A DNA stretch of 64,000 nucleotides. It comes from Scenedesmus sp. PABB004. Taxonomy: Eukaryota. Below, in pieces: positions 686-59,253 of this stretch. A program made the translations under genes and the position numbers. Numbering within the stretch: position 1 is the first letter of the stretch; the number at the start of each line of letters is the position of its first letter. Under the pieces are notes generated by a model. The model was not told the origin of the DNA and did no database searches. It saw only the letters and a list, made by a program, of their open reading frames with translations. The DNA is taken from positions 620,001-684,000 of the forward strand of contig JABVCE010000004.1 of assembly GCA_014905635.1 (NCBI GenBank), written 5' to 3'.

Positions 686-2597
686 TCACTGCGGGCGCGC
701 CGGCGGCGGCGCCGCGACGCTGCCCAGCGGCTCGCCCGAGACGGTGCTGGCGGGCGCGCCCGCGAACGAGGGGCCCGCGGGCGCGCCCGACGGCGCGCCG
801 GTGCCGCCCGACGGCGCGCCGCCGCCGGTGCCGCCCGTGGCCGAGGGCGTGGGCCCGCGCGCCGCCGCCGCCGACGTGACCTCCAGCCCGCCGCCGCCGC
901 GCGCCCCGCCGCCGCACACCGAGTCTGCGCGCGCGGGGCGGGGCGGCGACGGCCGGTCAGCTGCGGCGGGGCGGGGCGGGGGCGGGGGCGGGGGCGGGGG
1001 CGGCGCGCGGCGCGCGGCGCGCACCCGACTGGCTGTTGCTCTCGGTCGGCTGCGCCGCCTGGCTGGAGGGGTGCAGCGACGCCGTGTGCTTGCGGCCCTG
1101 GCTGTCCGCGGGCGCCGGCTCCTGCTGCGGCGGCTCGCTCGCCGCGGCGCCGCCCGCGCCCCTGATCGGCTCCAGCAGCCGGTCGGCGACGGCGACAAAC
1201 GTGTCAAAGATGCTCTCGGGGTGCAGCACAAACTCGACGTACGACAACGCGCCGATGCCGTCGCGCACCGCGCCCAGCGCGACCTGCGGCCGCCGCAGGT
1301 CGGGCGGCGCGGCCGCGGCGTGGGCCGCGGCGGCCCGCCGCGGGAGCTGGCTGCCGGGGCGGGCTGCCCCGCGCGCGCCTGCAGCTGCCCAAGCGCCCGC
1401 GCTGCGGCGCGCGCGCGCGGCACGCGCCTCTGCGGCCTCCTCGGGCGGGTAGCCGTACACGCCGGTTGAGATGGCGGGGAACGCCAGGTTCTCCAGGCGC
1501 CGCTTGTTGGCCAGCTCCAGGCACGACCTGCGCGCGTGCGCGTGCGGTCAGCACACGGCGCGGCGGCGTGCGCCGGGCGCGGCGCGGCGCGCAGCGCCGC
1601 AGGCGCGCACAGGTACGCCTTGCGCAGCAGCGGCGCCGACTCCTCGGCGCTCTTGTAGATCGGGCCGACGGTGTGGATCACAAACTTGGCCTGCAGCCGC
1701 CCCGCGCTGCGGACGCGCGGCGCCGCGCGGCGGCGCAGCGGCGGGCCGTCAGGCATGGCCGGCGCGCGGCGCGCGGCGCCCCGGGCCGCCCGCGCCCGCT
1801 GCGGGCCGCGGGGCGCGCGCGGGCCGCACCTGGTCATGCGCGCCTCGCCGGTGGGGCAGCGCACGTCCGGCGCGACCTCCGGCACCTGCTGGCACGCCGC
1901 CAGCAGCTTGGGCCCCGCCGCGCGGTGGATGGCTGCGCGGCGCGGCGCGGGGCGGCGGCGCGGCGTGGGCGCGCGCGCCGGCCAAGCGCGCGCGCGCCGC
2001 CGCGGCCGCGCGCAGCGGCTGCGTGGCAGCGCATCAGCGCGCGGCGGCGCACCCCCGTCCACGCCGCCGCCGCCCAGCATGCGCTCATTGGCTGCGCACG
2101 GCGGGCGGGCGGGCGGCGTCAGCCCGGAGCGGTGCGGCGGCGCCCGAGCGCGCTGTTGGCGGCGGCGGCGGCGGCGGCGCCGGGCGCTGCCAATCCCCCC
2201 AGCTGCTGGCCCCCCAGCTGCATCGCGCACCCGCGTTGACGAGCGCGTCACCGCTCCACGCCGCGATGTCGCCCTGCGACAGCACGATCAGCGCCTCGCC
2301 GTGCTTGTACCACCTCGCGTTGGAGGAGGGCATCCTGGCGCCGGGTCCGCGCCCGGGCGCGCTGCGGTGGCGGGCGGGCGCGGCTGCGGTGGCGGCTGTG
2401 GCTGCGGCGGCGGCGGCGCCGCCCGCTGGCGGCTGCGGTGGCGGGCGGGCGCGGCTGGAGCGGCGCAGCAGCGGCGCCGGCGCCCGCCCGCCGCCGCGCG
2501 CCGCCGACGCCGCCGCGCACGCTGTGGCGGTGGCGGTCCGCGACGGGGATGCCCAGGAGGAGGGACGCAGCGGCGGCAGCAGCCGGGCAAGGCGCAT
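686..2597 (-). CDS. Macrodomain (Appr-1''-p / ADP-ribose hydrolase, MacroD/YmdB-like) protein with N-terminal targeting-like extension, about 7 exons
   Basis: Spliced motifs QGDIAAWSGDALVNA|ANERMLGGGGVDG|AIHRAAGP...CPTGEARMT|AKFVIHTVGPIY|LAFPAISTGVYGYPPEEAAE; low-complexity C-terminal tail. Confidence 0.9.
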
Positions 2598-2879
2598 GCA
2601 GCGGGCAGCGAGTTCTCTGCTGATCGGGCGAGCGCAGCGCGTCGGGCGAGCGCGGAACCGGGGCGCGCGCGACAGCGTGCGGCGCGAGCGGGCGCGGACG
2701 TCGGGAAGGCGTGGGGCTGCCGGCCGGAAGCTTGCGGAGTCGGAGCGCCGAACAACACGCAGCGAAACAACAGCAGCAGCTGTTGCTGCTCCGAAGGGCT
2801 CGCCCTGCGCCCATTCCAGTCTCCCAGCCTCAGCGCGCTCGTGCCGGAACCACACACGCGGCGCCAAGCAGCAGGCACG

Positions 2880-56046: not shown

Positions 56047-59000
56047 ATGGCCGCCGCGGCGGCGGGCCCGGCGCCCATCCAGCGCCTGGAAGACGCGGTG
56101 GTGCACCGCATCGCGGCGGGCGAGGTGGTGCAGCGCCCGGCGAGCGCGCTGAAGGAGATGCTGGAGAACAGCCTCGACGCCGGCGCGACCCACGTCTCCG
56201 TGGTGCTCAAGGAGGGCGGCCTGAAGTACCTGCAGATCCAGGACGACGGCCACGGCGTGGCGCTGGAGGACCTGCCGCTGCTGTGCGTGCGCCACGCGAC
56301 GAGCAAGCTGCGCGCGTTCGAGGACCTCGACACGATCGCCACGCTCGGCTTCCGCGGCGAGGCGCTCGCCTCCATCAGCTTCGTGGCCCACGTCAGCGTG
56401 ACGACCATGACGTCCGCGATGCCGCACGGCTACCGCGTCGCGTACGCCGACGGCGCGCCGCTGCCGCCGGGGCCAAAGCCCGTCGCGGCGGTGCCGGGGA
56501 CGAGCATCATCGTCGAGGTGCGCCGCGCGGCGCCGGGGCTTTCAAATTGAGCAGTGGGAGGGGCGGCAGCGGGCGGGGTCAGCAGGCAGCCGCCGCCGGC
56601 GGTTGGCGGCGGCAGTTGGCACCGCAACCGCCTCGGAGCTGCGGTTGGCGGCGGTTGGCCGCCGCGGCACGGCCGCCCACGCGCGGGCGCCGCGCCGCAA
56701 CCGCCGCGCCGCGCCGCGTGCAGGACATGTTTTACAACATGCCCGCGCGCCGCCGCGCGTTCCGGCCGGGCCCCGAGGAGCACAACCTGTGCCTCGAGGT
56801 AGTCCAGAAGTACGCGGTCTTCAAGGCCGGCGCGTGCGGCTTCACGGTCAAGCGCCAGGGCGAGGCGCGCAGCGACCTGCACACGCTCGCGAGCGCGAGC
56901 CGCGTCGACGTCATCCGCGCGCTGCACGGCCCCGAGCTCGCGGCGGGGCTGCTGCCGCTCGCGGCCGCGGGCGGCGCGGGCGACGTGAGCGACGCCGTGC
57001 CGCTGCACGGCCCGATGGCGTTCGCGGCGACCGGGTTTTGCAGCGCGCTCACGCACGCGGGGCGGCGCAGCGCGCTGATCCTCTTCATCAACGGCCGCCC
57101 CGTGGAGCAGGGCCAGCTCAGGCGCGCGATCGAGGGCGCGTACGCGGCGCACAACCCCAAGGCAACCAAGCCCTGGGTCTTCCTCGACCTGCGGCTGCCG
57201 CCGCGGCACGTCGAGGTCAACCTGCACCCCACCAAGCGCGAGGTCGGCTTCCTGCACCAGCAGGAGATCATCGACGCGCTGACGGGCGCCGTGCACGCCG
57301 CGCTCGCGGGGTCGATGTCGAGCCGCGCGTTTGCGGTCAACACGCCCTCCCTGCTCGCGGCGGGCGAGCCCGCGGCGCCGGCGCCGGGGGGCCAGGCGGG
57401 GGACGACGAGGAGCGCGACGACGACGGCGGCGGCGGCGGCGGCGGCAGCGGCGCGCGGCCGGGCTCAGCAGCGGCGGGCCGCGGCGCCGCGGGCTCGCAG
57501 CGCCCGCCCTCCGGCGGCGCGTCGCAGCGCGGCGGCGGCGCGTCGGACGCCGGCGGCGGCGCGCCGTCGTACTACCGGCCGGAGAAGCTGGTGCGCACCG
57601 ACCACCGCACCCAGACCATCGACAGCTTCCTGGTCTCGCAGCCCGCGCCGGCGGCCATCGCCACGGCGGCCGCGGCGGCCGGCGCCGCGCCGCGCCGGCG
57701 CGCCAGCCGGCCGGACGGCGGCGCCGGCGACGACGCCGGCGGCGGCGGCGGCGGCGGCGGCCCGCTGCTCAGCAACGCCAGCCTGCACCTGCAGGCTGCG
57801 GCGGCGGAGGAGGCGGCCGCGGCGGCGGAGCTGGAGCAGCAGCAGCAGCAGCAGCAGCCGGGCGGCGAGCAGCAGCAGGGGCAGGGGCAGCAGCAGGTGC
57901 TGCTGCTGCGCCCCGTGCGGCAGCTGAAGCTGCCGCCGGTCGCAACGCAGCTGAGCAGCGTGCACGAGCTGCTGGCGGACGTCGCGGCGGCGACGCACGG
58001 CGAGCTGGAGCAGCTGTTCCGCAGCCACACCTGGGTGGGCATGGTGAGCCCGCCCGCCCGCCCGCGCGCCGCGGCCGCGCGGCCAGCGCCGCGCTGTGCG
58101 CCGCCGCGCCGTCGCGCCCACACGCGCGCCGCCGTGGCGCCGCCGCAGGCCGATGACCGGCTGGCGCTGCTGCAGCACGGCACGCGGCTCTACCTGGTCG
58201 ACGTGGCGGCGGTCAGCGAAGACCTGTTCTATCAGCTCGCGCTGGCGCACTGGGAGGCGCCGCGCGTCGCGCGCCTCGCGGCGCCGCTGCCGGTGGCGCG
58301 GCTCATGGACGCGGCGCTCACGCTCGAGCAGGCGGCGGGGCGCTGGCAGGTCCGCTGCACGTGCGCGCGCGGGCCGGCCCGTGCCGCGCCGCGGGGCCGC
58401 TGACGCCGCGTCCGCCGCCGCTACCGCCGCGGCCGCCGCCCGGCCGCTGCGCAGCCCGAGCCGGGCGGCAGCCGGCAGGAGGTGTGCGCGCTGGTGGAGG
58501 CGCTGCTGGCGCAAAAGGCTGAGATGCTATCTGAGTATCTTGGCCTCACCTTCAGCACCAGCCCCGCCAGCCCGCCGAGCGACGCCCCGGGCGGCGGCGC
58601 CGGCGGCGCCAAGGACGGCGGCGGCGCCGCGGCCGCCGAGGCGCACCGCGACGCGGCGCCGCCGCCCGACCAGCGGCCGCCGGCCGGCGAAGGCGCGGGC
58701 GCGGCGCCGGCGCCGGGGCCGGGGCTGTGCCTCACGGGCGTACCGCTGCTGCTGGAGGGCTATGTGCCCGACCTCAGCTGCCTGCCGCAGCTCGTGCTCG
58801 CGCTCGCGCGCGACGTCGACTGGGACAGCGAGCGCGCCTGCTTCGAGTCGCTCGCGCGCGCGCTCGCTAGCTTCTACGCGCTGCAGCCCCTGCTGCCGAC
58901 CGCGCCGGCGCCGGGCGGCGGCGGCGGCGCCGGCGCGGGCGGCGGCGACACCGGCAGCGGCGCGGCGCCTATGGAGGTCGACGGCGGCGCGGCGGCGGCG

Positions 59001-59253
59001 GCAGAGGACGACGCGCCCGCGGCCACGCAGGCGCCGACGCAGGCGCCGACGCAGGCGCGCGCGGCGGCGCGGCGGCGGCCTGCTGGGCGCGCACCGCGAA
59101 GCCGCGCAGCGCGAGTGGCTGCTGCGGCACGTGCTGCTGCCGGCCGCAAAGGCGGTCTACCGCCCGCCGCGGCACCGCGCGCGCGACGGCAGCGTGCTGC
59201 TGCTGACCTCGATGGAGCGGCTGTACCGCGTGTTTGAGCGCTGCGGCTGGTGA
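56047..59253 (+). CDS. MLH1: DNA mismatch repair protein MLH1
   Basis: RIAAGEVVQRPASALKEMLENSLDAG, RHATSKL, LGFRGEALASIS, VEVNLHPTKREV, KLVRTD, VDWDSERACF, LYRVFERC. Confidence 0.97.

Follow-up and report, generated by a model that had tools for sequence, protein, structure and literature searches.

Genes and introns of the window

We analysed introns that start with GC instead of GT and end with AG (GC-AG introns) in a 64-kb stretch of the genome of the chlorophycean alga Scenedesmus sp. PABB004 (contig JABVCE010000004.1, positions 620,001 to 684,000; hereafter the window, with coordinates counted from its first letter). Its DNA is nuclear, comes from a photosynthetic eukaryote and holds many short introns. 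It contains no N, and its GC content is 76–83% throughout, measured in 4-kb steps. Because stop codons are rare at such a GC content, open frames are uninformative (there are 153 stop-to-stop frames of at least 250 amino acids). A Pfam scan of individual exons named a macro domain, two subtilases, DXS, a PhoD-like gene, an OSCA/RSN1-type channel, a CBS-domain gene, VTC, an IDM1-like gene, Yippee, Serinc, a Smg8/9-like gene, a Zn-ADH, an NT-C2 gene, MLH1 and FKBP. In a comparative table the strain is listed with 39.8 Mb, 78.50% GC and 7,092 genes, and its relatives with 13–18 thousand genes (PMC12571836).

Comparison of the window with homologous proteins confirmed its GC-AG introns as a genuine observation (Table 1). 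A preliminary description of this DNA had listed 14 introns with a GC donor behind an exonic AG. All 14 indeed run from GC to AG behind an exonic AG, and the GC(G/A)C start ascribed to them is found throughout, with G in 12 and A in two at position +3 and C in all 14 at position +4. The same description held that conserved reading frames need GC donors at about 14 introns. This is borne out for 11 introns, which homologues pinned without a gap; two others are probable (macro and NT-C2 c) and the one in MLH1 is ambiguous. Together with a VTC intron beyond the earlier list (33481..33596), 12 GC-AG junctions were gap-free by homologues or profile coordinates, and at these 12 the removal of exactly the GC-AG segment restored the conserved frame. 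Another probable VTC intron, with unpinned borders, reads ccc/GCGCGCC (the slash marks the splice junction). The statement that every GC donor reads AG/GC consequently holds for the 14 listed introns and may fail at this one.

Table 1. GC-AG introns of the window with their donors (exon in lower case, intron in upper case) and the grade given to each
Gene	Position	Strand	Length (nt)	Phase or frame	Donor	Grade
Macro-domain gene	1284..1427	-	144	in frame	gag/GCGCGTG	probable
DXS	14471..14631	+	161		cag/GCGCGCG	verified
DXS	15226..15396	+	171	in frame	cag/GCGCGGC	verified
OSCA/TMEM63-like	22528..22627	+	100		aag/GCACGGC	verified
OSCA-like	26366..26498	+	133	phase 2	cag/GCGCGCG	verified
VTC (VTC2)	32625..32753	-	129	in frame	cag/GCGCGCG	verified
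VTC (VTC1)	32883..32978	-	96	in frame	aag/GCGCGGC	verified
VTC, short intron	33039 or 33042..33097	-	56 or 59		ccc/GCGCGCC (no AG before donor)	probable
VTC, beyond the earlier list	33481..33596	-	116		cag/GCACGGC	verified
IDM1-like	39490..39619	-	130		aag/GCGCGGC	verified
ADH/fdh (ADH2)	49953..50101	-	149		cag/GCGCAGC	verified
ADH/fdh (ADH1)	50165..50269	-	105	in frame	aag/GCGCGTC	verified
NT-C2 a	52838..52961	+	124	phase 1	cag/GCGCGGA	verified
NT-C2 b	53090..53282	+	193		cag/GCGCGGC	verified
NT-C2 c	53722..53845	+	124		cag/GCACGCC	probable
MLH1	59055..59109	+	55		cag/GCGCGCG	possible; ambiguous

Junctions placed by homologous proteins

Junctions were placed with a purpose-written protein-to-genome spliced aligner, and single exons or in-frame read-through references served as queries. 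The genes examined in depth were those carrying the claimed introns. In the homologue searches, a read-through query that included low-complexity intron translation gave one match among 8000 candidates, and clean single exons worked better. Low-complexity matches dominated an unfiltered tblastn search with the VTC homologue, and the spliced aligner was used in its place.

In DXS, the exon ending at 14470 aligned up to residue 209 of Arabidopsis DXS (7bzx), the first intron codon mismatched residue 210, and the exon from 14632 aligned from residue 210 or 211, leaving no gap at the junction. At the second DXS intron, the read-through translation placed query position 197 at residue 334 and query position 256 at residue 336 of 7bzx, so that exactly the 57 intron codons dropped out. 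This intron scored −0.63 log-odds per codon, against +0.5 in the flanking exons. The GT intron that lies between both GC introns (14782..14997) showed the same gap-free behaviour. In the OSCA-like gene, HRHQK/WYVLLRQHY ran continuously with YHHKRYVHLRHHY across 22528..22627, an intron that was selected with both homologues covering it (P0054 and P0069). The intron at 26366..26498 was selected with 4/4 homologues and without a gap, and the match to the Pfam profile RSN1_7TM starts, at profile position 118, with the first residues of the following exon.

Three VTC introns were resolved in the same manner. At VTC1, TGERSVK/ERAS aligned without a gap to TGERSVKERAP of Monoraphidium, and the intron looked non-coding by log-odds. 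At VTC2, EWRQ/APALRTEY aligned gap-free to GHGQGPSVRTEY, and the Pfam VTC match resumed exactly at the first residue past the acceptor. Keeping VTC1 or VTC2 in the protein cost a gap of 32 or 43 residues against the Monoraphidium minutum protein P0001, and the score fell from 835 to 793 and 790, respectively. The additional intron at 33481..33596 joined EWTAPDQ/FTRSTAKYW, which aligned to KWEAPDEFQRSTTKYW without a gap (APDQ/FTRST versus APDEFQRST), and here the ab initio call agreed. In the IDM1-like gene, positions 52–80 of Pfam IDM1_C filled the upstream exon entirely, and positions 82–139 began at residue 2 of the downstream exon.

Aligned to its Tetradesmus obliquus orthologue (P0004), the ADH/fdh gene comprised ten introns, eight with GT and two with GC donors as claimed, giving VQRYWPTLLPK/VLAGELRPAEVVVTHELPLEQ/AAKGY. 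At ADH1, VQRYWPTLLPK/VLAGEL matched VQRYWPTLLPKVQAGEL of Tetradesmus and the intron looked non-coding by log-odds. At ADH2, THELPLEQ/AAKGY matched THVLPLEQAPKGY, and the spliced aligner selected the intron with both homologues tried (P0004 and P0008). In the NT-C2 gene, intron a joined LIPFFA/gELPSGLE, gap-free against VIPFFAGELPSGLE (Tetradesmus P0026; P0025). Intron b joined FWKQFLKQ/TATLY, aligned to FWKQYLRQTATLY, and was selected with three of the four aligned homologues.

NT-C2 c is graded only probable because two rival donors, one GC and one GT, come close to it in score: the alignment reached 995 with the claimed intron, 1000 with the other GC donor (53708–53816) and 980 with the GT donor (53764–53845). 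The claimed intron restores DEQ/DLSGF, the same as DEQDLSGF in Tetradesmus, and its combined weight-matrix and coding score lies 10 units above that of the best GT alternative. Likewise probable, on profile coordinates and codon scores, is the intron of the macro-domain gene. Positions 84–116 of the 118 positions of Pfam Macro end at the exon end, and macro-domain matches from the PDB stop at or just past the last residue of this exon (query residue 33). For the downstream exon the PDB matches gave no placement except a weak PARP14 stretch that resumes there. The 48 in-frame codons of the intron total −16.8 in coding log-odds, compared with +13.8 and +37.7 in the flanking exons.

A change of frame from RLRFYGP to (Q)AVFVERKTH indicates the short VTC intron. 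No in-phase GY donor exists there other than the one given in Table 1, and the sole GT solution deletes the conserved VFVE; against the Monoraphidium protein a gap of 7–8 residues leaves the borders unpinned. A consensus-looking but unusable cca/GTGCGCC lies 26 nt before the next exon.

In MLH1, the Mlh1_C core lies in frame 0 and the end (...LYRVFERC) in frame 1, and an intron of length 3n+1 is therefore needed. The claimed GC intron has a consensus donor, but its 55 nt fall below the shortest verified intron (73 nt). A rival GT-AG intron (58977–59109, 133 nt, gag/GTCGACG) gives a linker of 30–34 residues, near those of human (24) and yeast (30); its donor is poor and violates the near-invariant G at +3 and +5 of GT donors. 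On these grounds a GC-AG intron in MLH1 is ambiguous.

Between 22628 and 25400 (+), the OSCA-like gene seems to hold about 2.7 kb of low-complexity Ala/Arg/Gly-rich sequence within the cytosolic domain. Alignments in this part were unreliable, and the spliced aligner invented introns with any donor type. The first VTC exon (33888–35099, −; 404 residues) had no Pfam match, so that no SPX domain was detected in it; it aligned only loosely, to the N-terminal region of the Monoraphidium protein.

Tests against chance, decoys and artefacts

In a second approach, we employed a self-trained dynamic-programming gene finder. It comprised a codon log-odds model trained on the three-base periodicity of the window itself as well as donor and acceptor weight matrices built on GT introns only, and GC donors were admitted at a 3-nat penalty. 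The finder recovered 11 of the 14 claimed introns exactly, while VTC2 was read through, ADH2 was given another GC donor and MLH1 another acceptor. In 14 of 14 cases the best in-frame GT-AG alternative scored below the claimed GC intron, penalty included, by 1.0 to 22.9 units; the margins were smallest for ADH2, IDM1, the first DXS intron (DXS1) and VTC1.

Decoy runs admitted another dinucleotide as second donor beside GT. With GT only, the total score was 2965.8. It was 3197.6 with GT and GC (25 extra-donor introns, 14 of them preceded by AG), 3150.0 with GT and CG (25 and 3), 3051.8 with GT and CC (9 and 1) and 3043.7 with GT and GG (11 and 3). With GA, AC, CT, TG or CA as second donor, totals were 3000.0–3073.5, with 4–16 extra-donor introns and 0–4 preceded by AG. 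The CG decoy mostly fell 3 nt inside the same introns as GC, and the ab initio result therefore shows 20–25 places without a usable GT donor rather than, by itself, a GC donor.

Spliced protein alignments always scored higher with GT and GC than with GT only: 1504 versus 1439 for ADH (P0004), 1638 versus 1502 for VTC (P0001), 952 versus 823 for NT-C2 (P0026) and 1041 versus 920 for OSCA (P0054). In 8 of 11 protein–gene comparisons, GC scored strictly higher than each of the decoys CG, GG and CC. In addition, the gap-free position itself reads AG/GC at 12/12 firm junctions, which favours GC over the decoys.

GC is the commonest dinucleotide of the window (27,484 occurrences versus 4,625 of GT, both strands). 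If AGGC is simply common, the GC introns might mostly be artefacts of tracing, with the real splices at nearby GT or other donors and the in-frame introns being low-complexity coding insertions. Such an account could also draw on the false GC calls that the finder made, on the workable GT alternatives in MLH1 and NT-C2 c, and on five claimed introns whose lengths are divisible by three and whose frames are open. These five, however, lack codon periodicity. They scored −0.19 to −0.63 log-odds per codon versus +0.27 to +0.55 in the flanking exons, and the GC contents at their three codon positions (GC1, GC2 and GC3) were all 0.84–0.96, compared with 0.33–0.58 for GC2 and 0.94–1.0 for GC3 in exons. 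A coding insertion was thus ruled out for all five by codon log-odds, and for four of them also by homologue alignments. The motif AGGC(G/A)CG, moreover, is scarce, at 94 sites on the two strands together (128 kb; about 7e-4 per position), and yet 12 junctions were gap-free exactly at AG/GC. GT-only alignments of ADH, VTC, NT-C2 and OSCA dropped conserved residues or added junk. We therefore consider tracing artefacts a very improbable source of these introns.

It is also conceivable that the DNA reads GC where the RNA or the true genome has GU, either by T-to-C assembly errors or by C-to-U editing at position +2. A dozen or more such events would be needed, every one of them at position +2 of an intron and exclusively after an exonic AG. 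Assembly errors are further at odds with the absence of N from the window and with a public protein model from it that matches at 406 of 406 residues. RNA editing has been named as a general possibility for non-canonical sites (PMC7072748), and we found no direct evidence for it in the window; in Emiliania, GC-AG junctions were confirmed by reverse transcription PCR (RT-PCR) and Sanger sequencing (PMC4028052). Errors or editing are, in our view, extremely improbable here.

Several GC calls of the finder were rejected. The spliced alignments replaced the calls at 51527–51624 and 54006–54164 by a real intron at 51527–51648 (aag/GTTTTT) and a GT intron at 54054–54164, respectively. For the call at 29189–29292 in the CBS-domain gene (+), hand reading of the CBS profile points to a GT donor at 29147 (gac/GTGAGCG), giving HLMLHHD/VNLLPVVEGGGKVVG; this false call shows how easily GC donors are over-called in such DNA. 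The call at 30465–30707 probably has its donor at 30572, a GT (cag/GTGGGCG). GC candidates of the finder at 13447–13726, 20872–21256, 24659–24727 and 38680–38985 and in the tail of the IDM1-like gene (35867–39251) are unconfirmed.

Splice-site signals

As the preliminary description had stated, GT donors of the window are mostly GTGCG and not GTAAG. Among 35 verified GT donors, G occupied +3 in 33, C occupied +4 in 27 and G occupied +5 in 34, and none read GTA; at the exon end, −1 was G in 26 and −2 was A in 14. The 13 GC donors compared with them (the firm ones and the probable NT-C2 c) had A at −2, G at −1 and C at +4 without exception, and G at +5 in 12. An AG at the exon end was hence found at 13/13 GC donors versus 10/35 verified GT donors (Fisher p=5.9e-6). 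Phase 0 was likewise more frequent, in 11/13 GC introns versus 14/32 GT introns (p=0.02). This excess is to be expected if an AG is obligatory at the exon end, given that about 95% of third codon positions are G or C and that CAG, AAG and GAG are then the natural carriers. Intron lengths were alike, with a median of 129 nt for GC and 118 nt for GT introns.

On the GT-trained weight matrix, the GC donors scored +2.7 to +4.9 in 10 of the 14 claimed introns, and the best in-frame GT alternatives −6.6 to +1.4. Scores were −0.7 to +1.4 for the first OSCA intron (OSCA1), ADH2 and NT-C2 c, and 3.3 for the macro-domain gene. Apart from position +2, the GC donors match the GT-donor consensus of their host. 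An RTATCCTT-like donor is the mark of U12-type introns. None was seen among the GC introns, whose donors all read GC(G/A)C(G/A). The RTATCCTT motif of U12-type donors is quoted in PMC2846911, and Chlorophyta are reported to be without minor-spliceosome snRNAs (small nuclear RNAs; PMC11347168).

The acceptors of the window are strongly GCAG/G, with C at −3 in 37 and G at −4 in 30 of 38 training introns, and are preceded by a C/G-rich tract in place of a pyrimidine tract. ADH2 stands out by its AT-richer acceptor (...CATATGTGAACAG).

Frequency of GC donors

Introns were counted in a finder run over chosen gene spans of the window, in which GC donors were admitted only behind AG and introns had to be shorter than 400 nt. 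This run gave 107 introns, 91 with GT and 16 with GC donors. VTC1, VTC2 and MLH1 were missed, the first four unconfirmed candidates named above were included, and ADH2 received its correct donor with a different acceptor (50010–50101). Since most GC calls without AG were wrong, the count is only rough, and we put the GC donors at 12–16 of 105–115 introns. By this estimate, GC-AG introns make up roughly 12–15% of the introns in the window.

The earlier figure of roughly one GC intron in ten, as opposed to about 1% in typical eukaryotes, agrees with our estimate. GC-AG introns average 1.2% in plants over 121 genomes (PMC6310983) and about 1% in humans (PMC3167603). For Chlamydomonas reinhardtii, expressed sequence tags gave 532 GC-AG versus 25,053 GT-AG introns, or 2.1% (Table 2 in PMC2846911). 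Against this Chlamydomonas rate, 13 GC introns among 107 (the 12 firm ones and NT-C2 c) have a binomial probability of p=4e-7.

Origin of the GC donors

In pairing between U1 and the 5' splice site, a C at position +2 loses one pair, whereas pairs are gained through A at −2 and G at −1. Judging from the splice sites, we give a probability of about 80% to the explanation that these are ordinary U2-type spliceosomal GC-AG introns, whose frequency would be owed to GC pressure and which would be tolerated where additional U1 pairing comes from the exon end. The donor would then be the organism's normal 5' splice site, (C/A)AG/GYGCG, with C for T at +2. We infer that GC-biased mutation or gene conversion keeps converting the T at +2 to C, and that this C would be tolerated only where the remaining site pairs well with U1 (and U5/U6), chiefly behind exons ending in AG. 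Such a restriction could explain why GC donors follow AG and mostly lie in phase 0 after CAG, AAG and GAG codons. Extra exon-end consensus at GC-AG introns was reportedly described by Burset (2000) and by Thanaraj and Clark (2001).

Alternatively, the splicing machinery itself (the U1 5' end, the U6 ACAGA box, U1C/LUC7) might have adapted and co-evolved with composition, making AG/GC(G/A)CG a second, fully efficient donor class. We take the canonical U1 5' end to be ACUUACCUG and the canonical U6 box to be ACAGAGA; an Rfam search of the 64-kb window gave 0 matches at gathering score, and no U1 or U6 gene or other snRNA gene was thus found within it. The GC donors are frequent and very uniform at +4 and +5, as adapted machinery would have it, and the GT donors too depart from GTAAGT in being G/GTGCG. 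For the GTGCGTG donors of Ostreococcus, Irimia and Roy indeed considered changes of snRNAs possible, but donors of the GTGCG type are known from other green algae as well (PMC2483917), and the high GC-AG share of other GC-rich algae has been explained by composition alone (PMC4028052; preprint 10.1101/2024.10.30.620910). The excess of AG at exon ends, in turn, is what an unchanged U1 would demand. Because the GC donors match the GT weight matrix elsewhere and carry the extra exon-end AG, an altered spliceosome is not required, and the GC-donor data fit compensation by unchanged machinery, as is classical for U2-type GC-AG introns. We therefore regard adapted machinery as unlikely. If it were true, PABB004 and its close relative Tetradesmus (about 57% GC) would together make a paired natural experiment on a spliceosome following genome composition.

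Several points weigh against the explanation by GC pressure and exon-end compensation. Every junction is known here from genomic sequence and protein comparison alone, and most homologues used are themselves predicted proteins. In 3 of the 11 protein–gene comparisons a decoy equalled or beat GC by 0–2 (GG 1132 versus 1131 with P0008, a tie at 254 with P0024, and CG 544 versus 542 with P0079). Decoys come near the GC score because most GCGCGG donors contain a CG 3 nt further in, whose use lengthens the protein by a single alanine, so that homology cannot tell GC at the junction from a CG 3 nt on. The finder over-calls GC donors: at least 4 of its 11 GC calls without AG have GT solutions, the fourth (30465–30707) probably. 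The denominator of about 107 introns is approximate and comes from our own finder, and the share of 13/48 among homology-verified introns is biased upwards, the genes having been picked for carrying claims. Finally, the roles given here to mutation and to pairing with U1 are deductions.

Comparison with other genomes

The U2-type GC-AG introns of animals and plants resemble those of the window in their GC start, their AG acceptor and a donor that otherwise follows the species' GT consensus. At about 1%, however, they are some ten times less frequent than here (16/107 ab initio, 12 firm), and they read AG/GCAAGT instead of AG/GCGCG. In plants, genome GC and splice-site GC correlate with r of about 0.40 (PMC7072748).

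In Emiliania huxleyi, 56% of 241 mapped junctions were GC-AG, nine GC junctions were confirmed by RT-PCR and the high share was credited to a GC content of 65%; the authors also note errors of GT-biased ab initio prediction at junctions (PMC4028052). Emiliania is thus, like PABB004, a GC-rich alga with common GC donors in which GT-only ab initio annotation mispredicts, as the public fdh model does here. It is, however, a haptophyte with 56% GC donors at 65% GC, whereas the chlorophycean PABB004 has roughly 12–15% at 78.5% GC. For the pelagophytes Aureococcus and Pelagomonas, GC-AG shares of 14–17% and about 14%, respectively, were credited to high GC (preprint 10.1101/2024.10.30.620910). These shares are of the same order as ours, but they are gene-prediction figures for stramenopiles with less than one intron per gene, and the relevant passage of the preprint reports no exon-end AG rule.

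Within the green algae, Ostreococcus lucimarinus has the donor consensus GTGCGTG, and its GT donors, like those of the window, are GTGCG rather than GTAAG or GTRAGT; that paper, however, deals with GT donors of an intron-poor genome, and 'GC-AG' occurs 0 times in its text (PMC2483917). Chlamydomonas shares with PABB004 its place in the Chlorophyceae, a GC-rich genome and U2-type GC-AG introns, and differs in the low share of the latter. Literature searches on GC-AG introns of algae and on the strain gave no report for Scenedesmaceae; the supplementary tables of PMC6310983 and PMC7072748 may cover other green algae. PMC12571836, a paper related to the strain, contains neither 'GC-AG' nor 'splice'. 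Frequent GC-AG introns have been published before for other GC-rich algae, to which PABB004 adds an example from the green lineage, marked by a clear AG rule at exon ends and an excess of phase 0.

Public annotation

The public protein fdh of Scenedesmus sp. PABB004 (P0002) maps to 49.9–52.3 kb (−) of the window with all 406 residues identical. Its model contains seven introns, GT-AG only. The last of them (49953–50402) begins 12 codons inside the true intron and passes over two conserved exons (32 residues) with GC donors at their borders. The residues lost in this way, VQRYWPTLLPK and VLAGELRPAEVVVTHELPLEQ, are conserved in nine of the ten other aligned homologues (P0014 ends early and still has them). 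A second mis-splice of the model (51573–51865, −) skips the exon encoding GDRVAVAFDIACGGCYSCSRGYQSSCDTTNPSK, downstream of which the true intron is 51527–51648 with its odd donor.

If one intron in eight is GC-AG, GT-only annotation would damage a large share of the multi-intron genes of PABB004. The main use of these introns would accordingly lie in re-annotation and in comparative work on splice-site drift, for which related genomes at about 57% GC would allow each T-to-C change at +2 to be polarised separately.

The NT-C2 gene, which carries two to three GC-AG introns, may also be missing or mis-modelled in the public annotation. A search with its most conserved exon (gene at 52700–54600, +) returned 14 matches, none identical to the window and the best at 83%, while the fdh exon found its own public protein.

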